In this document: piece by piece, positions 6,801-16,467 of the stretch | Numbering within the stretch: the stretch's first letter is position 1 | Layout: every line of letters starts with the position of its first letter | From: a virus | Taxonomy: Duplodnaviria > Caudoviricetes | DNA: 36,606 bases | Virus record (IMG/VR): IMGVR_UViG_3300030372_002131 | Coordinates: 1-36,606 of that record | Reading direction: 5' to 3' (one strand) | The notes under the pieces: generated by a model | The model's database searches: none | The model's input: the letters and a program-made list of their open reading frames with translations, nothing else | What the model was told of the DNA's origin: nothing | Position numbers and translations under genes: made by a program

Positions 6801-7171
6801 TCGTTAGGTATCTTCTTATGACACCACATAAAACCATTTTTATCACACCAGTTGGCGTATGTAGTGTTGCTGTTTTTGTTAAGTCTTTGGTGTGCGTTCA
6901 TAAATAAAAATCGAATATCGTAGCTAGTCTGTTGAGAAATTAAAATATGCTTAGTCCTATCACTCGGTTTAAAAAATCCTTTAGCTTCAATTATGACACC
7001 GTTAGGAAATATAAAGTCGGGTGTGTAAGTACAAAACTTCTGATACTTAATCCGCATCGTCTCGTATTCGAAGTCTACCCCCTCACTTTTCAGTGAGAGG
7101 GCAGTATCTCTTTCGAACTTGGATCTAAAACGGGACACTCGCTGAACTATTCTTTTCTTCGCCTGTCTCAT
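6779..7171 (-). CDS. Endonuclease I / Holliday junction resolvase (gp3-like)
   Basis: Motifs 'FRSKFE', 'YTPDF', 'IIEAKG', 'TYANWCDKNGF'. The true start may be slightly downstream. Confidence 0.95.
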   Translation of the reverse strand: MRQAKKRIVQRVSRFRSKFERDTALSLKSEGVDFEYETMRIKYQKFCTYTPDFIFPNGVIIEAKGFFKPSDRTKHILISQQTSYDIRFLFMNAHQRLNKNSNTTYANWCDKNGFMWCHKKIPNEWATVTL

Positions 7172-7790: not shown

Positions 7791-10211
7791 TTAGGAAAAG
7801 AAGTACGGACTATCTCTTATTTGTGAGATGTCGGCCGAACCATACTCGGGAGGCTCGGGAAATTCTATGTCGGGGTTCTGTTTTTTTACCTGACTTAACC
7901 AATCTCTTAGGTAGTCATCGGTAAACATCTTAACAGCTTCATCACGAATGACTTCATTAAGTATGGGAATGTTTTTACAGTGCGTTCCATAAGAATCATG
8001 GATCATCGAGAAGTCATAGATACCTTTATCGTTAGCACTGTTAACGGTTTTGTGTAGTAAAGTCCCATCAAGGGAGTGAACAAGATTTGGAGATACACCT
8101 TGAGCTTGTTTGATTGGGCTAATTTCTTCCGTGCTTTCCCCAAACCTAACCCATAAAGCTTCACCACTTATATTAGTAGTTACCCGAGAAGTCTTAATCT
8201 TTCGGTAGTCCTGCTTAACAACAAAACCCGAAGGGGTAACCCATTGAATATGTCTTTTGTTTTTGCTGAGAATCTTTGAGACTTTTTGTAGCCATTCCAT
8301 GCACTGTTTAGGTAAATCGAGAACCTCCTCGATAGCTTTCCAAACAATAACAGATAAGTAATGAACAGCTTTATAAAACTCCTTGTCACAGAAGGGACTC
8401 GGGCAATCATCAGCGTGTATTTTTTTCTCGAACCAATCGAGTATATATTGACGGCACGAGTACATCGTTAATCCATAAGACCAAGTCATGCAAGGTCGTT
8501 TTAGCGTATCGCGGTTAATACCATAGTCCAACCAAGCTTGTGCGAACGGATGGTTTTCTCGGGCATCCTTTTCCATGAATGCTTCCGCTCTTACCCGAGC
8601 AACATTATAAATATCCGCTACCCCACCTGTTGGTATTACGTTAGTAGCCTTACAACCATATTCACACCGAGTAAGGATCGAGAGGATTTGTAAGCCGTTG
8701 TTAGTGGCATCAACATTTATAGGAATCCTTGTTTTTAACCTCTCAAACCCGCTATCCGCAAAAGTTTTCCACTCAAAACAAAACGCTATAAATTGCCAAG
8801 GGGAATCCGCATCTATCCACTCAGTAAACGAGGTAGGATCAGTTGCTATTTTACAAATCCATTCGGTGTTGTCGTAAGTCCACTTAACTCTTTCATCAAG
8901 GGTAACTTTATCAAATCCCCAAGTGTTTGCTCCGTGAATTGCAAGCCACTTTGCCTCCTCCTTACCTCTAACTCTAACATCACGATAAAACTCGAGTAAC
9001 CCTCGACAAAGATCTGGGCCTTGCGTGTGAAGAAACGAGTTAATAGGGTAGGCTCTTCCTCTAAAGTCAAAGTTCTGAGGAGCAAAGAATCTGTAACCCC
9101 GAAACCTTTCAGCTAGTCCTATAATTTTAGCACAAAGAACCCGCTTAGATCTTGAAGAATTATTTCTGCGATGCACCCCGCTCGCCATCTTAGCCCAACT
9201 GTCTCTACTAGCTTTATTCTCGTCACCATCTACAGGGAAGGGAGGCTTTACCTCGTCTTCTTGGGGAACCATTGTTGATCCTATGGGAATATTATTATCC
9301 CAAGCCCAAGTCGCTAAGTCTAATACCTTGTCGTTAATCTGCCACGGTGTTCGCTGAATTAGATTAATAGCTCTTATAGGTTCCGCGAGGTCAGCCGTTT
9401 TAAGTGATCGGAGAAAATCTTTGTCCCTAGTTTTTATTAAAGTAACCTCGGGTAATTGTGTTCCTTCTGCACGGTAACCGCCTTCCCAAACACTCGTCCA
9501 GTCAGCGGGTAAATCTAGAGAGGGTAACCAAAAAGGTTCCATCAACGCTCGGTAGTTATTAAAGTTCTCCATCCATTCCAAAGTGACAGCCGAGGGAGTT
9601 ACGAAACGAGTGTGACTCTTCCTTCCTTTTTCTCTTATGTAACTGTATTCAATAAGACCAGTTGAAACCCTTAATAATTCTATAAGAGTCATCCCACACA
9701 TTATTCGGTCTCGTCTTGACCAAGGTTCAAAGTCTGGTATGCCTTCCTTCTCTTCCTCGTGCCTCATTGATAATTGTATGTGCCGAAACTGAGAAGCCTT
9801 CGCTCTTCTCTTAGCCCCGAGAATAATTCCCGAGCCCTTTTTTTCGTTAGTCTTTAATAAATGTTTTAACCTTAATTCAAACTCTATAACCTTACCTACC
9901 GAGTAACTCATCGAAGTGTACGTGCAATGCTTTTGAGGGAATGTATCAAGCGCAGTTTTAAGTACGAGGAACGCGGTTTTCTTTGGGTCATATTCCTTTA
10001 GCTCTCGCATCCACCTATTATGCTTCGTCTTGTTCTTATAACTGATCCCTTTAATCGCTGTTGCAAACGCGGGAAGTAACTCCCGAATTAATGTCTGCCC
10101 CGCCTTAGTCCTTCCCGTTTCCTTCTGCTCCCGAGCCGATTCAATTTGATTATTAAACCTGCTTATCCCGAGAGAAGTCATCTCTTCATTGAGTTGGTTT
10201 TGATCTAACAT
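7791..10211 (-). CDS. Single-subunit T7-type RNA polymerase
   Basis: Motifs 'DFRGRAY', 'DATNNGLQ', 'R...KRPCMTWSYG', 'PNLVHSLD', 'IHDSYGTH'. Confidence 0.98.
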   Translation of the reverse strand: MLDQNQLNEEMTSLGISRFNNQIESAREQKETGRTKAGQTLIRELLPAFATAIKGISYKNKTKHNRWMRELKEYDPKKTAFLVLKTALDTFPQKHCTYTSMSYSVGKVIEFELRLKHLLKTNEKKGSGIILGAKRRAKASQFRHIQLSMRHEEEKEGIPDFEPWSRRDRIMCGMTLIELLRVSTGLIEYSYIREKGRKSHTRFVTPSAVTLEWMENFNNYRALMEPFWLPSLDLPADWTSVWEGGYRAEGTQLPEVTLIKTRDKDFLRSLKTADLAEPIRAINLIQRTPWQINDKVLDLATWAWDNNIPIGSTMVPQEDEVKPPFPVDGDENKASRDSWAKMASGVHRRNNSSRSKRVLCAKIIGLAERFRGYRFFAPQNFDFRGRAYPINSFLHTQGPDLCRGLLEFYRDVRVRGKEEAKWLAIHGANTWGFDKVTLDERVKWTYDNTEWICKIATDPTSFTEWIDADSPWQFIAFCFEWKTFADSGFERLKTRIPINVDATNNGLQILSILTRCEYGCKATNVIPTGGVADIYNVARVRAEAFMEKDARENHPFAQAWLDYGINRDTLKRPCMTWSYGLTMYSCRQYILDWFEKKIHADDCPSPFCDKEFYKAVHYLSVIVWKAIEEVLDLPKQCMEWLQKVSKILSKNKRHIQWVTPSGFVVKQDYRKIKTSRVTTNISGEALWVRFGESTEEISPIKQAQGVSPNLVHSLDGTLLHKTVNSANDKGIYDFSMIHDSYGTHCKNIPILNEVIRDEAVKMFTDDYLRDWLSQVKKQNPDIEFPEPPEYGSADISQIRDSPYFFS

Positions 10212-10223
10212 AATGATAAATTT

Positions 10224-10487
<264 letters not shown>

Positions 10488-11598
10488 ACTTGAAGATGGG
10501 TATTCTAGCGCGTTAAGACCACTAATAAAACTCTGCGGAGATAGCCGAGCATATCTAAGGGTTTGCGCTATATCTTTATGACCTAGCCACTCTTTTGTCA
10601 ATAGTAGGTTATTCGTCCTTTGTATCAGTCTAGACCCACAAGTGTGACGACAAACATAAAAAATAAAATCCTTATCTCCTTGTCTACCGAGGGCATCCCG
10701 AACTTTATCCCAAGCTCTCCTGATTCGATCTTTATTCCAATGCGCCCAAGGATAATCGTTAGCTTCTTTATGCTTATGGATAGCGCACATAGCTCTACGG
10801 GTTAATGGTATGGTTCTCTTCTCACCGTTCTTAGTTTTCTGTAGGTGAGCACAAACACCGAGGACGGGATCTTTCTTTATGTTTCTCCTATGAAGATATC
10901 GGGACTCTATCGGGCGCATCCCTGTATCGATTTGCCATACGAAAAAATCATAGAAGTAATCCATTCCGTTTTCCTCGAGGTAGGTTAATATCTCCACCTC
11001 TTCTTCCTCAGTGAAATAAACCATCCTCTCGTTGTTTACTTTAATACGAGGAAAAAAAGGTTTCTTGTCGAGAAGCTCCCTCTCAACCGCAAATGAAAAC
11101 GCCTTGCCCATTGTCGCTAGTTTAAGTTTAATAGTAGCGGGCGCATTTCCTTTATCCTTACAATGCAAAACAAACTTATCGAGCTTTGCTTTATTGATGC
11201 TTTTAATAAGGGTCTTAGCCCCAAAGAAAGCTTCTATTTGATGGCAATGGTTACGAGCCGTGTTCTCATTTGGTGTACCCTTCCACCCCTCGTTCGGTGG
11301 CGTACTAAGAACCCTATCGAATAGCTGTTGTAGCGTTAGAGGTTTAAAAGATTTCTCTTCTTTGTCGATTGAATCGCCTCGAGAGATTGCTAGTCTTAAA
11401 TTACTTTCCCAAGCTTGGGCTTCTTCCTTAGTTGGAAATTGTTTTCTGTAGCGTACCCCCTCGCTCATAAAATCAGCGAGGAATCTACTGCTTCCTGATT
11501 TACGGATTGACATAATGTTAGGGTCTTTCTATTGTTGTTGTTGTTAAGTTTTTTGTTAGGTGATGTATATAATAATTATGAATTAATAAAATTCAAAT

Positions 11599-11692
11599 AA
11601 AAAAAAAGGAAGCACCAACAGGAACCTAAAGAGAACTACCTAACTAAAACTCTTCAGGAAATGACCCCACTGGTGCTTCCTCAAATGAATAC
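11599..11692 (-). ncRNA. Candidate phage small RNA (two-stem hairpin plus U-tail)
   Basis: Outer stem AGGAAGCACCAGUGGGG/UCCUGUUGGUGCUUCCU (17 bp), inner stem CCUGAAGAG/CUCUUUAGG (9 bp), loop UUUUAGUUAGGUAGUU, 3' U-run. G-U pairs favour the minus strand. A promoter lies immediately upstream. Confidence 0.6.
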
Positions 11693-11697
11693 GGTTA

Positions 11698-11727
11698 ATA
11701 ATAAGTGCTGAATATATGGTTAGTCAA
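11698..11727 (-). promoter_or_regulatory. sigma70-type promoter for the candidate sRNA
   Basis: TTGACT (11727-11722), 18-nt spacer, TATTAT (11703-11698). Confidence 0.6.
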
Positions 11728-11812
11728 CATCATTAATTGAGAAAAATCTAAGTATCACAAGGATCACGAGGAACCAAAGGACAACTCCCGCAAGCCATAT
11801 TAATACACTCAT
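11720..11812 (-). CDS. 30-aa single-TM peptide
   Basis: Manual translation MSVLIWLAGVVLWFLVILVILRFFSINDVD; below the ORF-track cutoff. Confidence 0.6.
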   Translation of the reverse strand: MSVLIWLAGVVLWFLVILVILRFFSINDVD

Positions 11813-11820
11813 AAATAACA

Positions 11821-12168
11821 TTATAGCTCGATGTCAAACATCAGTTGGTTTACATAAGGTAACGCTAAATGCTTTTGGCCTTCAGTAGTCATTAATGCGT
11901 TAATCTCCTTAACGACTACATGACAATGTGGTGCCTTTTTACCAAAGACTTTCCCCGCGGTTTCATAAGTGAATCCAAACTTTTTAACGAGGATAAACAT
12001 GGCAATCTTTCGCCAGTGTGATGCGTTATGTTTTGTACTGTCTTTTAAATAAGCCTCGTCAAATCCCGAATGATTGCTCATAGATTGAAGAAGGCGGTTA
12101 ATGATTAGATTTTGATTTATCAAAGGTCTTATCTGTTTTTTTGCTATTACTGTAGTTTTAGTTTCCAT
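11821..12168 (-). CDS. DnaA C-terminal (domain IV)-like HTH DNA-binding protein
   Basis: 'WRKIAMFILVKKFGFTYETAGKVFGKKAPHCHVVVKEI' parallels the DnaA pattern 'RQIAMYL.R....SL..IG..FG.RDH.TV'. Confidence 0.65.
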   Translation of the reverse strand: METKTTVIAKKQIRPLINQNLIINRLLQSMSNHSGFDEAYLKDSTKHNASHWRKIAMFILVKKFGFTYETAGKVFGKKAPHCHVVVKEINALMTTEGQKHLALPYVNQLMFDIEL

Positions 12169-12172
12169 AAAT

Positions 12173-12346
12173 TTATTTCTTTTTGTAAGGGCTTTTTGCC
12201 CAATCGTCCGTGATGTTTACCTCGACTAGTTCAAAGTCCTCGAGGAATTGACTAACGACTTCCTGAATAGATGCCCTTAGTTCATTCTCTGTTTCATCAT
12301 CAAAAATTTCTTGATGATCTTCTAATAATATTTTAATTGTCTTCAT
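12173..12346 (-). CDS. Small acidic early protein
   Basis: Manual translation MKTIKILLEDHQEIFDDETENELRASIQEVVSQFLEDFELVEVNITDDWAKSPYKKK (57 aa); fills the gap between neighbours. Confidence 0.65.
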   Translation of the reverse strand: MKTIKILLEDHQEIFDDETENELRASIQEVVSQFLEDFELVEVNITDDWAKSPYKKK

Positions 12347-12352
12347 AATTTT

Positions 12353-12589
12353 TCAGGTTAATAAAGTGCTTAGTTCTTCCTCGGAAATTTCCCGAGGTTC
12401 ACCGATAATTTGGTTGAGTAAACTGTCATGCGTAAACTCATCAACATGCCCGAGCTTTGGCTTATCATTTTGAAATGGCTCGGGTGACAAGTCATAAGTA
12501 AAGGCGGTTAATAGTTCGCCCGAGTCACTGTATTGAACATCGAGAATTATTGGGAGCCGACAAGGGCGAATAAAACGGTGTAGGTTCAT
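12353..12589 (-). CDS. Hypothetical early protein
   Basis: 78-aa ORF with an AACCUAA leader. Confidence 0.65.
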   Translation of the reverse strand: MNLHRFIRPCRLPIILDVQYSDSGELLTAFTYDLSPEPFQNDKPKLGHVDEFTHDSLLNQIIGEPREISEEELSTLLT

Positions 12590-12598
12590 CGTTAGGTT

Positions 12599-12799
12599 TT
12601 AATTCGTTTTAGTTGCTTGGTGCAGGACTTTTTTATAGACGTTATGATGGTCAATAAAACGCTTATCATTTTTAGCAAGCCCGTAACCTTTTATAAATTC
12701 ACCATTGTCGAATCCGTTATCAACAATATCCATTAGCTCCCAATATTCACCGATTGATAATTTAATTGTGATTGTCTTGTTATTTTTGGTAGTTTTCAT
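12599..12799 (-). CDS. Hypothetical early protein
   Basis: 66-aa ORF with an AACCUAA leader. Confidence 0.65.
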   Translation of the reverse strand: MKTTKNNKTITIKLSIGEYWELMDIVDNGFDNGEFIKGYGLAKNDKRFIDHHNVYKKVLHQATKTN

Positions 12800-12809
12800 A
12801 TTAGGTTAG

Positions 12810-12971
12810 TTAGTTCTTCTTTTCTATCTTGTAAGTAATTTTAGGAGATTCTGAGCTTAATTCGTAAAGGTCAAAGTTCTTAATGTTGTTAATAGCCTCT
12901 TGCTCGTTATCCGCGTAAATTTTAAAGAGACCTTTAAAGGTAATCTTAACTTTGTATTCGTATTGATTCAT
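12810..12971 (-). CDS. Hypothetical early protein
   Basis: Manual translation MNQYEYKVKITFKGLFKIYADNEQEAINNIKNFD... (53 aa) with an AACCUAAAA leader. Confidence 0.65.
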   Translation of the reverse strand: MNQYEYKVKITFKGLFKIYADNEQEAINNIKNFDLYELSSESPKITYKIEKKN

Positions 12972-12987
12972 AATATTTTAGGTTAAT

Positions 12988-13022
12988 AAAAAAGCCCCTC
13001 GAGGATAAACCCGAGAGGCTTT
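12988..13022 (-). terminator. Intrinsic terminator in the early region
   Basis: 13-bp stem AAAGCCUCUCGGG / CUCGAGGGGCUUU followed by a U-run. Confidence 0.8.
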
Positions 13023-13032
13023 GATAATGTTT

Positions 13033-13215
13033 TTAATGTTGGTTGTTTTTTGCGGTTAATTTCTTGCCGTCTTTAATTAGTATTTCTGCGCCCTTAAGGC
13101 TTATGTTTTTTGATTCTGCGAATTGCTCGAGGGTTAGATAATTATCACGCCATTCTTTATACCAAGAAATTGCAAGCGCGTTTAATGTGTCTTCTATTTG
13201 TTTATCGGTTGCCAT
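13033..13215 (-). CDS. Hypothetical early protein
   Basis: 60 aa with the pattern 'Y.EW.DNYLTLEQFAE...IS...A..LI..G' seen in small phage early proteins. Confidence 0.7.
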   Translation of the reverse strand: MATDKQIEDTLNALAISWYKEWRDNYLTLEQFAESKNISLKGAEILIKDGKKLTAKNNQH

Positions 13216-13221
13216 TAGGGT

Positions 13222-13419
13222 TTAATCGGTTTCAGTTAATCCTCCTAATATTTGACGATTAGCCAAAGCTTGCTCATACAATCCGTATCTTTTAGCATTT
13301 GGGCGCACTTCATCCCAATAATCACACTTGCATATATTGTCGTAATAATAACCGCAATTTTCATTATGTTTTAATCCCATTGGGCGCGTGTCTTTTAGTT
13401 TAGTTGTCGTTAGGTTCAT
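13222..13419 (-). CDS. Hypothetical early protein, possible metal-binding H/C cluster
   Basis: 65 aa containing 'H..NC......CKC'. Confidence 0.6.
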   Translation of the reverse strand: MNLTTTKLKDTRPMGLKHNENCGYYYDNICKCDYWDEVRPNAKRYGLYEQALANRQILGGLTETD

Positions 13420-13448
13420 TTAATAAGGTTAGTTAGTTTTTTTTTATA

Positions 13449-13504
13449 TCAGCCTATTAGCTGAATCCCTAACCCCCGAGGAATGCCCGAGGATTACGGA
13501 TTCA
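13449..13504 (-). promoter_or_regulatory. Long intergenic hairpin, RNase III-site-like (copy A)
   Basis: ~19-bp imperfect stem UGAAUCCGUAAUCCUCGGG / CUCGGGGGUUAGGGAUUCA with no adjacent U-tract; paralogous to 14475-14529. Confidence 0.6.
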
Positions 13505-13509
13505 ATTAA

Positions 13510-13935
13510 TTAAACTTGTTCCGCTTCTTCTAACTCGTAGAACCTCGCGGTCTCCTCTAATGCGTACCAAGCGAGCGCATTTAATACTTGCTTATCCATC
13601 CCGTCATTTAGCGTGGCAAGATCAGGCTTGTCGTAAATTATTGAAGCAATTTCAAGGGTGCTTATTGTATTTGTTGTTCCAAAACAATTAAAGTTTTGAA
13701 CAAATATTAACGGATCTTCACCCATTCCGCTTGCATCTTCCTTTATGGATTCCAGTATTTCTTCCATATTATCACGCGCAAACTTGCAAGTGTCTTTACA
13801 ATATATAAATCCGCTGAAACCTCCATCGGCTCCGTGGTTGCGTACATCTTTTAATGTGTCGTGTAGTTCTTTGTCGTTCCAAGCTTTAAAGCCTAATTGA
13901 TTGCGAACGTTTTTTTCTAATTTGTTAGATATCAT
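13510..13935 (-). CDS. Conserved phage early protein, acidic, function unknown
   Basis: 'DVRNHGADGGFSGFIY..DT..F' and 'NALAWYALEE' form a recurring phage early-gene family signature. Confidence 0.75.
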   Translation of the reverse strand: MISNKLEKNVRNQLGFKAWNDKELHDTLKDVRNHGADGGFSGFIYCKDTCKFARDNMEEILESIKEDASGMGEDPLIFVQNFNCFGTTNTISTLEIASIIYDKPDLATLNDGMDKQVLNALAWYALEETARFYELEEAEQV

Positions 13936-13970
13936 TTTAGTTAGGTGTTTTTATTTATAGTTATGTGTTT

Positions 13971-14069
13971 TTATTCAAACCAATTAAAATAATCAGACAC
14001 TCGCTCGAGTAATCCGAGAATAATAATGGCGGTTGAAATTAGTAGAATTGATGCGATTAAAAAAAGCAT
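13971..14069 (-). CDS. 32-aa single-TM peptide
   Basis: Manual translation MLFLIASILLISTAIIILGLLERVSDYFNWFE. Confidence 0.5.
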   Translation of the reverse strand: MLFLIASILLISTAIIILGLLERVSDYFNWFE

Positions 14070-14132
14070 ATTGTATCTATCGGTTAGGAATTAAATAAAT
14101 GCAAATAATATTTTTAAGAAAGTTTTAAAGCG

Positions 14133-14450
14133 TTAATAGTTTGCAGATTCCGAAATGATCTTATCAAGTATTAAATAAGTATCAGGATTTGCGCTGTATT
14201 TTGAGCTGTATTTTGAACTCCACCCTGTACGCTTTAAATTATATTCAGCGTATGATTTAAGAATTTTTAATTCGCGCTCAATAGTTTTAAAATGAAGATT
14301 TATAGTTAACTCATCAATCTTATTGTTTTTATCGGGCTTTTTATCGCCTTGATAATTTTTAATAGACTCCAAATTCTTCTTAATGCGTTCTATTTGATTT
14401 AAAGCTTCAACCGCGTGACTCGCTTGTTGTTTGTTTATTAGTCTTCTCAT
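14133..14450 (-). CDS. Hypothetical early protein (coiled-coil)
   Basis: 105-aa ORF with an AACAACCUA leader. Confidence 0.65.
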   Translation of the reverse strand: MRRLINKQQASHAVEALNQIERIKKNLESIKNYQGDKKPDKNNKIDELTINLHFKTIERELKILKSYAEYNLKRTGWSSKYSSKYSANPDTYLILDKIISESANY

Positions 14451-14474
14451 TTTTTTTTTATAGGTTGTTTTTAG

Positions 14475-14529
14475 TCAGTCTTAATTAACTGAATACAGTC
14501 CCTCGAGGATTGCCCGAGGAACTGAATCA
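14475..14529 (-). promoter_or_regulatory. Long intergenic hairpin, RNase III-site-like (copy B)
   Basis: Stem UGAUUCAGUUCCUCGGG / CUCGAGGGACUGUAUUCA. Confidence 0.6.
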
Positions 14530-14536
14530 ATCAACA

Positions 14537-15433
14537 TTATCCGAGGATGTAATTAGATGCTTTTTGAGCGGCACTGGCGGCCTGCACTGCTAGCTTGCAA
14601 TCGCCTTTTAAGACCTTAATCCAAGACTGAAGATAAGCGGCCGAATTTTCCATTATCTCGCTGTTATCAATTCGCGCTTCATTGCATAAAAACGCGGCAC
14701 CCATCTCAGCTACTAGTTCCTCTTTACTGTAAACATCATCACCAAAACTTGAATTGGTAGCAACGCCTTTACGATCCAAGCGGGACTTATGACCAGTTGA
14801 ATGTATTAACTCATGGAAGAAAACCGCGTAGTAATTTTCCGCATCTTTAAAGCTGTTTATTTCAGGCATCCTTACTTCATCACGACTAGGAGAGTAGCAA
14901 GGGTTTCCGCGAGCTGATAGCTTGTTATTATCGATGCTTATTGAAGGCTTATTTGGCATATTATCAATAATACTCTGCGCGGCCTCTATTGGCTCAATCT
15001 CCTCATCATTAGGCGATGTAATAGGCTCAGCATCCTCATCAATACCCTCTATTTGATCGAGGTTAAAAACATAAGAATGTTTGAAAAATGGAATCTTCTC
15101 AACAGCTTTTTTCTCGTCCAGTGTTTTCTTACCGTTCGCGTCCTTCATAAGAAAATTGAAGTAAGTCACAGGCGTTCCTTTTTCACCCTTGTTAACCTTA
15201 CCACCATTAGCTTTAGCCTGATTGAAAGTCATCCACTTATTTGAGCTATAACCTTTATAAAATTGCATTCCTTCAAGTAGGAAGTAGTTAATGCCTTTAT
15301 AGGTGTTTTTACTTACAAAGTTTTGAGGATCAGTGATACGGTTAACCTTGAAGTTACGCTTCCAAGGCGCCACGCCATTTTCTAGTAGTTCGATCAGTCT
15401 ATCAGTGACTAATTCGTATGTTTTAGTATTCAT
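14537..15433 (-). CDS. ardC: ArdC-family antirestriction / ssDNA-binding protein with zincin-like domain
   Basis: 'LENGVAPW', 'Y.GIN...L', 'WMTFNQA...GG.V.KGEKG', 'VFNLDQ', 'HELIHSTGH..RL.R', 'YSKEELVAEMGAAFL', 'AAYLQSW'. Confidence 0.93.
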   Translation of the reverse strand: MNTKTYELVTDRLIELLENGVAPWKRNFKVNRITDPQNFVSKNTYKGINYFLLEGMQFYKGYSSNKWMTFNQAKANGGKVNKGEKGTPVTYFNFLMKDANGKKTLDEKKAVEKIPFFKHSYVFNLDQIEGIDEDAEPITSPNDEEIEPIEAAQSIIDNMPNKPSISIDNNKLSARGNPCYSPSRDEVRMPEINSFKDAENYYAVFFHELIHSTGHKSRLDRKGVATNSSFGDDVYSKEELVAEMGAAFLCNEARIDNSEIMENSAAYLQSWIKVLKGDCKLAVQAASAAQKASNYILG

Positions 15434-16143
15434 TTTTTTTTAGGTTGTTTTTTAGGTTGTTTTTACTCGCTTTAATTCGTTGCGATAGGAACCTATAAGG
15501 CCTACAAAAGATATAGCAAATGTTTTTTTAATGTTTTTTTAACATAGGGAAAAAACACCGATAAATACACAAACACTTGTATGTACAAATGCAATACATT
15601 AACAGCTTGGAACCTTGGAATAATCCGAGGCATTAAAGAGCTATTATTTGATGCCACTAGACTTGATGTCTGTTGCCTATTTGAGGGAGTGCCTAGGCTT
15701 ATATAAAAAGGAGAGGGGGTGTTGACAAATAACAGACAATCAACCTCAAAAAATCCTCATACCCGACTATCCCTATGGGGGAAGTAGAGATTGCTAAATA
15801 CAACGTGAACCCCTTCAGATTTTCTCACCAAAACCGAGGGTCAACAGGGATTGGTGTGGTATTACTTCTTCAATTATACCGCTAAGATACTCGGGAGTTC
15901 CCCGAAAGCTCCCTTCAAAACGCCACATTTAACATGTAACCTAGTCTTCCCCTAGGAGTATCTTTAAATTACTTTAACTTTACTGCTCACTACTATAAGT
16001 TCTCCCGATAACTCTCGGGAAATCTACCTGTATTAACATTATTAATTTAGACTTAAATCCCAATTATCCCTCTATTTCATAGACCCTCTAATTAACACTA
16101 AGTAAGAGAGAGCCCCCCTACCCCCCATTCGTTTACTTATAAG
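15434..16143. other. Non-coding junction between last late and first early gene; probable terminal-repeat/packaging region
   Basis: No ORF of 60 aa or more over ~700 bp; position matches T7-like genome ends; contains short palindromes and G/C runs. Confidence 0.65.
15490..15519 (-). promoter_or_regulatory. Candidate early host-RNAP promoter
   Basis: TTGCTA, 18-nt spacer, TAGGTT, with an A/T-rich UP-like tract, upstream of ardC. Confidence 0.45.
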
Positions 16144-16148
16144 TCAAT
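16133..16148 (-). promoter_or_regulatory. Candidate phage RNAP promoter or operator ATTGACTTATAAGTAA (copy 2, phiOR-like position)
   Basis: Exact repeat of 1575-1590, pointing into the genome-end region. Confidence 0.55.
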
Positions 16149-16467
16149 TTTTCCCTCGTCCTTTAAAACAAGCCTTTTTTACCTCTCGTTTTATAACGGG
16201 AAGCAGGAGGCTATCGAAAGCTCTCACGAGTGCTTCCTCTTTGTTCTCGTCATCTATGAGGTAGCTAAGTCCCGAGAGGGCTAGACAAGCGTGGAAGGCT
16301 TCGTGAAGGATTGTTTCAAGCTTATCGTTATCATTAAGGGTTCCTCGGATAGTTATAAGTTTCTTATCTATATCTAAGTTCCCGAAATCCTCTAGGTTCT
16401 TCTTATAAACGATCTTGTATTTATGACCACCTATCGTGATCTGCCGAGGATTATAAGACATGTTCAT
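16144..16467 (-). CDS. Small HExxH zincin-like protein
   Basis: 'FGNLD.....I.I' followed by 'ETILHEAFHA' and a downstream EE. Confidence 0.75.
   Translation of the reverse strand: MNMSYNPRQITIGGHKYKIVYKKNLEDFGNLDIDKKLITIRGTLNDNDKLETILHEAFHACLALSGLSYLIDDENKEEALVRAFDSLLLPVIKREVKKACFKGRGKN

Follow-up and report, generated by a model that had tools for sequence, protein, structure and literature searches.

A conserved, predicted hairpin RNA upstream of int in marine T7-like phages with a loop that varies together with its predicted target sites

Marine T7-like phages carry, just upstream of the integrase gene int, a conserved and apparently undescribed family of hairpin RNAs whose loop and target sites appear, from sequence comparison, to have co-evolved. 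The int leader is the most constant and best-supported target; int opens the operon that also contains the phage RNA polymerase (RNAP) gene. Secondary targets probably include roughly a third of the early genes. We think it probable, with some reservation, that the element is a small RNA (sRNA) of about 93 nt that pairs in trans with the int-RNAP leader and would block ribosome loading there and at about a third of the early genes. The analysis started from a 36.6-kb virus record, which in its full length is called the window here.

RESULTS

The phage and its int-RNAP region

The window has a T7-like layout of the Autographiviridae type, with a single-subunit RNAP, T7-like replication and virion genes and all main genes on the minus strand. 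The early genes (15433-11821) are followed by the integrase, the RNAP, the replication genes and the virion genes. The phage is present in marine metagenomes, and its closest annotated relatives are distant (37% identity for the RNAP and 32% for the integrase over most of its length). The int-RNAP region has the following features.

10410..11513, minus strand: tyrosine integrase (phrog_1, E 4e-48)
7791..10211, minus strand: T7-like RNA polymerase (phrog_414), downstream of int and in the same direction
10225..10485, minus strand: probable attP, with a tRNA-Leu(UAG)-like 5' half at 10378-10338 and TGACAA repeats on the flanks

A whole tRNA was not found at the probable attP, which has the 5' half alone. 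This half (10378-10338) is oriented from int to RNAP, so that integration would put RNAP behind the promoter of a host tRNA and apart from the int promoter. The genome search did not find a prophage form of the window phage, and the names of homologues gave no host. In the host search of genome contigs, the single match was an 8.7-kb phage contig in an Altibacter MAG. We did not take this MAG as the host because it has no match to the attP core at up to 3 mismatches, against a phylum background of 2 of 101 drawn genomes that match at 3 mismatches.

The predicted hairpin RNA in the window

The element lies between the early operon and int and consists of the following parts.

11698..11727, minus strand: sigma70-type promoter (TTGACT-18-TATTAT at 11727-11698), predicted to drive the RNA; its -35 box overlaps the last codons of a small ORF
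11599..11691, minus strand: predicted RNA of about 93 nt, with the 5' end placed from the -10 box and the 3' end at the U-run
11606..11682, minus strand: 18-bp outer stem, U-rich 5' bulge and 9-bp inner stem (predicted fold)
11634..11649, minus strand: 16-nt apical loop with the seed GUUAGG at 11644-11639, predicted to be 99% unpaired
11599..11607, minus strand: U-run of nine U's, an intrinsic-terminator-like end read from the sequence

On the minus strand the RNA is predicted to fold into the outer stem (11682-11665/11623-11606), a 6-nt U-rich bulge, the 9-bp inner stem and the 16-nt loop, with an energy of -36.7 kcal/mol (z -6.2) that none of 200 shuffles equalled. The plus-strand fold is weaker (-24.4 kcal/mol, z -4.8). 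The first-pass annotation of this DNA had described this promoter, the minus-strand structure, the 9-bp stem and the U-run end (11607-11599), and all of these were recovered; the outer stem, given there as 17 bp, has 18 bp. It had also pointed to a second UUUAGGUU in the inner stem. This copy is buried (probability of being unpaired, 7e-8) and not conserved in relatives, and it was therefore rejected as a seed.

A search of window positions 11300-16300 against Rfam gave a single match at E of at most 1, to CyaR (E 0.75) and on another hairpin, and six relatives gave no match at the gathering score; by covariance model, neither the c4 antisense RNA (RF01695) nor any other Rfam family was recognized in these sequences. 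Comparison of the element with annotated phages by blastn gave short chance matches only. Five metatranscriptome runs, in which the window phage is barely present, contained no contig over the hairpin. In one of these runs (X10), two short contigs match the phage exactly, one within int and the other at the end of the genome; their depth is 3-4, and they may be DNA carry-over.

Conservation of the element in relatives

An integrase match was found at 162 loci in seven scans of viral sequences and one scan each of metagenomes and genomes. Limited to those with an intact int start and counted once each, their upstream regions number 91. The promoter, hairpin and U-run were found just upstream of int in 34 of these 91 regions, with integrase identities of 44-100%. 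The near-duplicates L004 and L033 were dropped, leaving 32 analysed loci (L001 is identical to the window in this part). They form one clade in the integrase tree against three outgroups (support 100/100) and represent about six seed lineages, not 32 independent events. By eye, the element is absent from 18 printed regions of the next integrase group (41-45% identity). A model built on clade A found none in 39 more distant int-upstream regions; this model detected clades B and E at the syntenic place but did not detect C, D, or F, which makes its negative result in distant phages weak evidence of absence.

In 10 clade A sequences, 15 of the 22 stem pairs have changed on both sides and 92.6% of the cells are paired, counts that rest on a structure predicted from the same alignment and on related sequences; 0 of 500 shuffles were as high, and slid controls were far lower. 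Pair counts are given for clade A only, because MAFFT misaligned clade B (consensus fold poor, -5.8 kcal/mol) and the all-clade alignment failed for clades C to E. In all 32 loci, folding favours the sense strand over its complement; of 963 pairs, 174 are G-U. Among the relatives compared, the loop is nearly constant while the stems turn over. The element thus has the conserved structure and the accessible seed of a trans-encoded base-pairing sRNA.

Such an sRNA would also have its own promoter and terminator, and both are present as predicted patterns. Upstream of the RNA, TTGAC followed by 16-18 nt and nAnnnT occurs in 32 of 32 loci with a freely variable spacer sequence, and of five further TTGAC sites in these stretches, four have no -10 box. 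The promoter persists in L075 and L077, in which the -35 box is no longer encoded by the small ORF, and in L027, L046, and L065, in which this ORF was not found. The U-run is U-rich in most clade A and B loci and weaker in clades C, D, and F. The RNA is a single hairpin in clades A to E and has two domains in clade F. The two-domain version occurs in L049-L053, L061, and L062, and its further U/G-rich loops may be extra seeds. The RNAs of L033-L037 have a longer 5' part, with an additional small hairpin with a GGGG loop between the promoter and the main hairpin.

Predicted pairing with the int leader

Downstream of the U-run, the window contains a second promoter-like site and two complements to the loop.

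11569..11596, minus strand: second promoter-like site, predicted start of the int-RNAP transcript (TTG-16/18-TAnnnT, matched in 22 of 32 loci)
11551..11562, minus strand: distal loop complement where the int transcript is predicted to begin, 38-49 nt before the int AUG
11517..11522, minus strand: start-proximal complement CCUAAC between the SD-like GAAAG and the int AUG, the best-supported target

The match to the downstream promoter is absent in 10 of the 32 loci. The earlier reading had listed int as a possible target through a complement at 11551-11561. That complement exists (11551-11562) and is the distal copy; the conserved copy, CCUAAC at 11522-11517, had been missed, and the int leader is the most constant target rather than a marginal one. 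A CC-anchored complement of 6-12 nt to the locus's own seed is present in 31 of 32 int leaders, and in 18 of 32 loci at least two copies lie no more than 62 nt from the int AUG. The site lies at -10 to -3 from the AUG in all 22 clade A to C loci (sd 1.8), while its distance in these loci ranges over 53-102 nt to the -35 box (sd 13.8) and over 102-152 nt to the loop (sd 13.1). A site that is fixed to the AUG while its distances to the loop and the -35 box vary by about 50 nt points to translation and not to DNA binding. The sites of clades D and F are upstream of the SD.

The seed differs between clades: it is GUUAGGU in A, UUGGUAGUUUU in B, UUUUUGGUU in C, and UUUUGGUUU in D; clade F has as its seed the linker with UGUUAGGUUAAA in the two-domain RNA, and clade E has no clear seed. 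When the seeds of all clades were matched to all int leaders, the own seed was best for B (9.8 nt), D (8.7 nt), and F (8.7 nt) and tied for C. For clade A leaders it was second to the F seed; A and F share a core and cross-match. Against shuffled loops, the int-leader z values on the diagonal are 2.3-6.3 for A, B, C, D, and F. Co-variation of loop and leader motif across relatives had been set beforehand as a check, and the comparison bears it out, as clade seed and int-leader site differ together. At a finer scale, single-base deletions in the loops of L027, L031, and L025 are mirrored in their own int leaders (9-11 nt, compared to sibling means of 5.2-7.0), and the loop variant of L022 is not mirrored by a contiguous match. 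A seed that co-varies with start sites, as in a trans-encoded base-pairing sRNA, is therefore found for the int leader, and more weakly for the early genes.

When accessibility was taken into account, a locus's own RNA scored better on its own leader than the mean of the other-clade RNAs in 32 of 33 loci. Compared with the highest-scoring RNA of another clade, it was better in just 21 of 33, and it exceeded the best later start in 17 of 24. The start-proximal match of the window (6 nt) is among the weakest, and one other-clade RNA scores better on it (-8.8 versus -7.8). The int leader of L067 has no anchored site, and L062 scores poorly. In the RNA of L067 (2922-2987), the loop is UUUUUCUUU and lacks GG; the best predicted pairing of this RNA is that of a 3' bulge, CAUGGG, with the int AUG itself.

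Relatives that lack int or the attP spacer

L053, a relative in the RNAP clade, has no integrase match in its 13-kb locus and keeps the promoter, the RNA and the second promoter. Its RNAP leader holds an 11-nt perfect complement, whereas the RNAP leaders of 23 int-bearing loci reach 5 nt at most (0 of 23 reach 6). Three of its early starts match at 8-10 nt and six later starts at 4-6 nt. The site in the RNAP leader could be a leftover of a recent int deletion; the leader and the terminator stem around it have diverged from those of the sister L061. In another six loci (L029, L035, L036, L037, L046, and L077) int abuts or overlaps RNAP without an attP spacer, and the hairpin element is kept. 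These six loci lie in different parts of the integrase tree, which suggests repeated loss. Together with L053, they indicate that the constant partner of the element is the leader of whichever transcript reaches RNAP. Because 31 of 32 int leaders have a site and the RNAP leader of L053 has a complement, we take the int-RNAP leader as the best-supported target. The integrases of the six spacer-less loci are shorter (336-347 amino acids). In the more distant L055 and L057 (RNAP identity 47%, no int), the DNA upstream of RNAP lacks long forward ORFs, which suggests that genes there run in the opposite direction and depart from a T7 layout with all genes on one strand.

Matches at early genes and at the primase/helicase gene

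The other complements in the window are the following.

13935..13946, minus strand: 12-nt perfect loop complement at the start of early gene 13510-13935; exact, and the sole 12-mer match on the coding strand
15434..15460, minus strand: ardC leader with two ACCUAA copies (sequence match)
12589..13440, minus strand: complements of 6-8 nt at the starts of genes 13419, 12971, 12799, and 12589 (Watson-Crick stretches)
6803..6810, minus strand: 8-nt complement at the primase/helicase start, a possible further target; it overlaps endonuclease codons and shows partial co-variation

According to the first-pass annotation, nearly all early genes share the motif at their starts, which is an overstatement. 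Its 12-nt match at gene 13510-13935 is exact and unique on the coding strand, and the shorter complements that it listed are present as Watson-Crick stretches of 5-8 nt. A loose search of the window with a 14-nt loop pattern and 3 mismatches gave 8 matches, compared to 7.2 expected. With the raw count at chance, the signal lies in the position of the matches. At least 7 contiguous complementary bases occur at 6 of 11 early starts and at 1 of 28 middle or late starts in the window, the early starts plus int differ from the remaining starts (Mann-Whitney p 1.5e-5), and the early part, 11% of the genome, has 10 of the 14 8-mer matches on the coding strand. Some early genes of the window are weak: 13215 and 11821 reach 5 nt, and the 7-nt match of 12168 is inside its coding sequence.

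Across the loci, a match of at least 6 anchored bases to the own seed was found at 65 of 209 distinct early starts and at 12 of 142 later starts. Taken by clade, the proposed difference between early and later genes is significant in B and F, but in neither A (p 0.17) nor D (p 0.20). Matches to the clade B seed occur at 17 of 82 B starts and at 1 of 70 A starts, and the D and F seeds are less specific. Label permutation was also significant for later genes (p 2e-4), with related starts treated as independent; this test therefore partly reflects kinship and composition, and we do not rely on the permutation p values. When each loop was compared at early starts with those of siblings in its clade (30 loci), the own loop was better in 17 and worse in 6, with a tie or no score in the other 7. 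The early leaders of L022 and L027 (clade A) do not follow their own loop variant, and the TATA loop variant is matched at one L022 early start. Compared to shuffled loops, the z values of the early sets are modest (1.4-2.8 on the diagonal for A, B, D, and F; -0.1 for E). The primase/helicase start follows the loop in L027 and L034-L037 and does not do so in L044, L075, L077, and clade F.

A neighbouring candidate protein regulator

Three further features surround the RNA.

11821..12168, minus strand: DnaA domain IV-like helix-turn-helix (HTH) protein of 115 amino acids, candidate regulator (PF08299, E 0.0025, below cut-off)
11580..11594, no strand assigned: operator-like palindrome GAATT-N5-AATTC over the -35 box of the int promoter, the sole exact match to the degenerate pattern in the window
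11720..11821, minus strand: 33-amino-acid hydrophobic ORF ending in the -35 box of the RNA promoter, found by pattern in 28 of 32 loci

Relatives of 11821-12168 match PF08299 with E values down to 6e-7, the atlas matches are at 0.93-0.94, and such a gene adjoins the element in all clades examined. The palindrome is present with at most one mismatch in 15 of 32 loci, and other clades have a GTAC-N7-GTAC type. With this HTH gene and a palindrome at the int promoter beside the RNA, a layer of protein control may exist, and the earlier statement that no CI-type repressor is seen was too strong. The 15-bp palindrome is a possible site for host LexA or for the phage HTH protein; a LexA DNA-binding domain was not found in the window genome. 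In several clades the palindrome has the same 4-7-4 spacing as the alphaproteobacterial LexA box GTTC-N7-GTTC (PMC8565304), which is a resemblance only. The int promoters of L049 and L051 have a tandem GAAC-N7-GTAC-N7-GTAC, and a copy of the palindrome with one mismatch lies at a promoter-like site in the early region of the window (14102-14088).

The small ORF encodes a conserved hydrophobic peptide of about 30 amino acids (11821-11720) that ends in LRFF...D(V/L/I)D and whose last codons double as the -35 box. A type I toxin-antitoxin pair was rejected, as 0 of 28 start regions of the small ORF have a seed complement.

DISCUSSION

At the level of sequence, the comparisons establish a conserved structure on a defined strand, a conserved promoter pattern, a lineage-specific seed and a site in register with the AUG. 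The preferred mechanism would build on these as follows. Host RNA polymerase would make the hairpin RNA, and the promoter just after the U-run would give an int-RNAP transcript with the site and without the loop; pairing would then be in trans. Pairing between the SD and the AUG (clades A to C) or just upstream of the SD (D and F) would repress translation. Less translation of int would then lower RNAP by polarity, for which we invoke Rho; in phages that have lost int, RNAP would be lowered directly. Overall, pairing would act as a brake on the commitment to lytic growth, usable for lysogen maintenance, for superinfection exclusion or for timing only, and the hairpin RNA could be a brake that needs no protein. 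The RNA may plausibly have a role in lysogeny; the element survives the loss of int. The original proposal of a trans-acting RNA that silences the early regulon as a lysogeny switch is thus retained for an RNA with a co-varying loop; it fares less well for the regulon, with about a third of the early starts matching, and for the switch, as relatives without the attP spacer or int keep the element. Only tentatively do we extend the proposal to one RNA that replaces CI, silencing the int-RNAP operon, the early host-takeover genes and the primase/helicase start and holding the phage latent, with the seed variants as immunity groups that diversify by loop-target co-evolution.

The main alternative is a reading in cis only. 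Here the hairpin would be an early terminator, the loop of read-through transcripts would pair with the int leader 100-150 nt downstream so that Int is translated only from the downstream promoter, and the matches at early genes would come from a lineage-specific A/C-rich motif common to all early leaders. This would account for a target that is always adjacent to the hairpin, for the weak U-runs of clades C, D, and F, for the 31% of early starts that match, and for the fine-scale loop changes of L027 and L031, which the int leader follows more clearly than the early leaders do. A terminator, however, does not need a dedicated upstream promoter, which is present in 32 of 32 loci, and the distance from loop to site varies from 102 to 152 nt. 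Some own-seed matches at early genes are also strong (12 nt in the window, 9-10 nt in L053, the TATA variant at an L022 start), and we consider action in cis only unlikely, though worth taking seriously. Still less probable in our view is a plain large-loop terminator or RNase III site whose complementarity is a by-product of a U/G-rich loop facing A/C-rich leaders. The raw pattern count at chance and the modest z values of the early sets (1.4-2.8 for A, B, D, and F; -0.1 for E) are what such a by-product would give, but the loop stays invariant while the stems turn over, and seed and int site change together across clades, with int-leader z values of 2.3-6.3 (A, B, C, D, and F). This makes the explanation barely credible.

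An RNA acting in trans may instead have host mRNAs, or a shared translation-enhancer motif, as its main target and tune early lytic expression with no link to latency. GcvB silences ACA enhancers (PMC3879156), T7-like cyanophages integrate without stable lysogeny (PMC8776855), and the element is kept in six loci without attP spacer (L029, L035, L036, L037, L046, and L077) and in the int-less L053. The seed changes nevertheless track the phage leaders, and we regard this explanation as improbable. It is very improbable, finally, that the neighbouring DnaA-domain-IV-like protein recognizes the motif as DNA, with the loop as one inverted copy. The HTH gene does adjoin the element in all clades examined, and motif-like copies also occur in the spacer of the upstream promoter of some loci. 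The sites are, however, registered to the AUG and not to promoters, the inverted copy is in the unpaired part of a covarying RNA stem, and the early regions have 126 sense copies compared to 26 antisense copies, a count that is not controlled for strand composition.

Among known phage RNAs, the one that the preferred trans-acting sRNA most calls to mind is c4 of P1 and P7 (RF01695), which binds by loop-exposed complements near the ribosome-binding site of the operon that it precedes, c4-icd-ant, and underlies P1/P7 heteroimmunity (PMC12197685, PMC8198154). The hairpin RNA is likewise directly upstream of its target operon, its seed differs by lineage, and it may work like P1 c4 RNA, although it is not homologous by Rfam. 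It differs from c4 in having no Rfam match, a single-hairpin (A to E) or two-domain (F) fold and its own U-run, and in its predicted targets, which are the int-RNAP leader and some early genes in a T7-like podovirus background, whereas c4 targets an antirepressor. A c4-type identity based on an icd-ant antirepressor operon was rejected, as the genes downstream are those of the integrase and RNAP. P22 sar and lambda OOP are also small phage RNAs that repress a lysis-lysogeny gene, OOP being listed as cis-encoded (PMC12197685). Each of these acts on one gene, whereas the hairpin RNA is on the same strand as its predicted targets, with seeds of 6-12 nt and several targets. The P4 CI RNA gives immunity by RNA only, through pairing of a loop with sites that flank the RNA gene; it is processed and causes premature termination of its own operon. 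Pairing of a loop with sites near the RNA gene is what our element would share with it. In clades D and F, where the sites are upstream of the SD, the RNA resembles the multi-target sRNA GcvB, which pairs with A/C-rich translation-enhancing elements at that place (PMC3879156). GcvB is a host regulator of amino acid transport and has no sequence or Rfam relation to the hairpin RNA.

How integrase-carrying T7-like phages restrain their RNA polymerase is an open question. For the temperate T7-like phage LUZ100, a MarR-based switch has only been proposed, with RNAP reached by read-through from the int operon (PMC10134795). LUZ100 also has a regulator upstream of int, but this is a protein repressor acting on DNA, and its integrase is just 32% identical to that of the window; the main text of that report does not mention sRNA, small RNA or ncRNA (PMC10134795). 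In T7-like cyanophages, integration without stable lysogeny was described and no repressor homologue was found (PMC8776855). The hairpin RNA is a concrete RNA candidate for this role, with predicted seeds and targets, natural compensatory variants in six lineages and an int-less relative. If the proposal is true, these phages contain a natural set of partly orthogonal sRNA-leader pairs. The element is undescribed in two motif surveys (PMC2864571, PMC5737381), apart from supplementary catalogues of predicted phage RNA motifs, which could hold it, and a literature search at the level of titles, abstract openings and passages found no report of it.

Two other types of non-coding element were observed. 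Between the early genes of the window there are repeated hairpins with CUCGGG-n-CUCG(A/G)G tops (14540-14480, 13513-13453, 13037-12976, and 1654-1594). They resemble RNase III sites, two of them close with U-runs, and cleavage at them would divide the early transcript into units with an A/C-rich leader at the start of each. In a sister group without the hairpin RNA (L081, L083, L085, L086, L088, and L092), another non-coding element is conserved about 100-40 nt upstream of int; it could be a different RNA or an operator.
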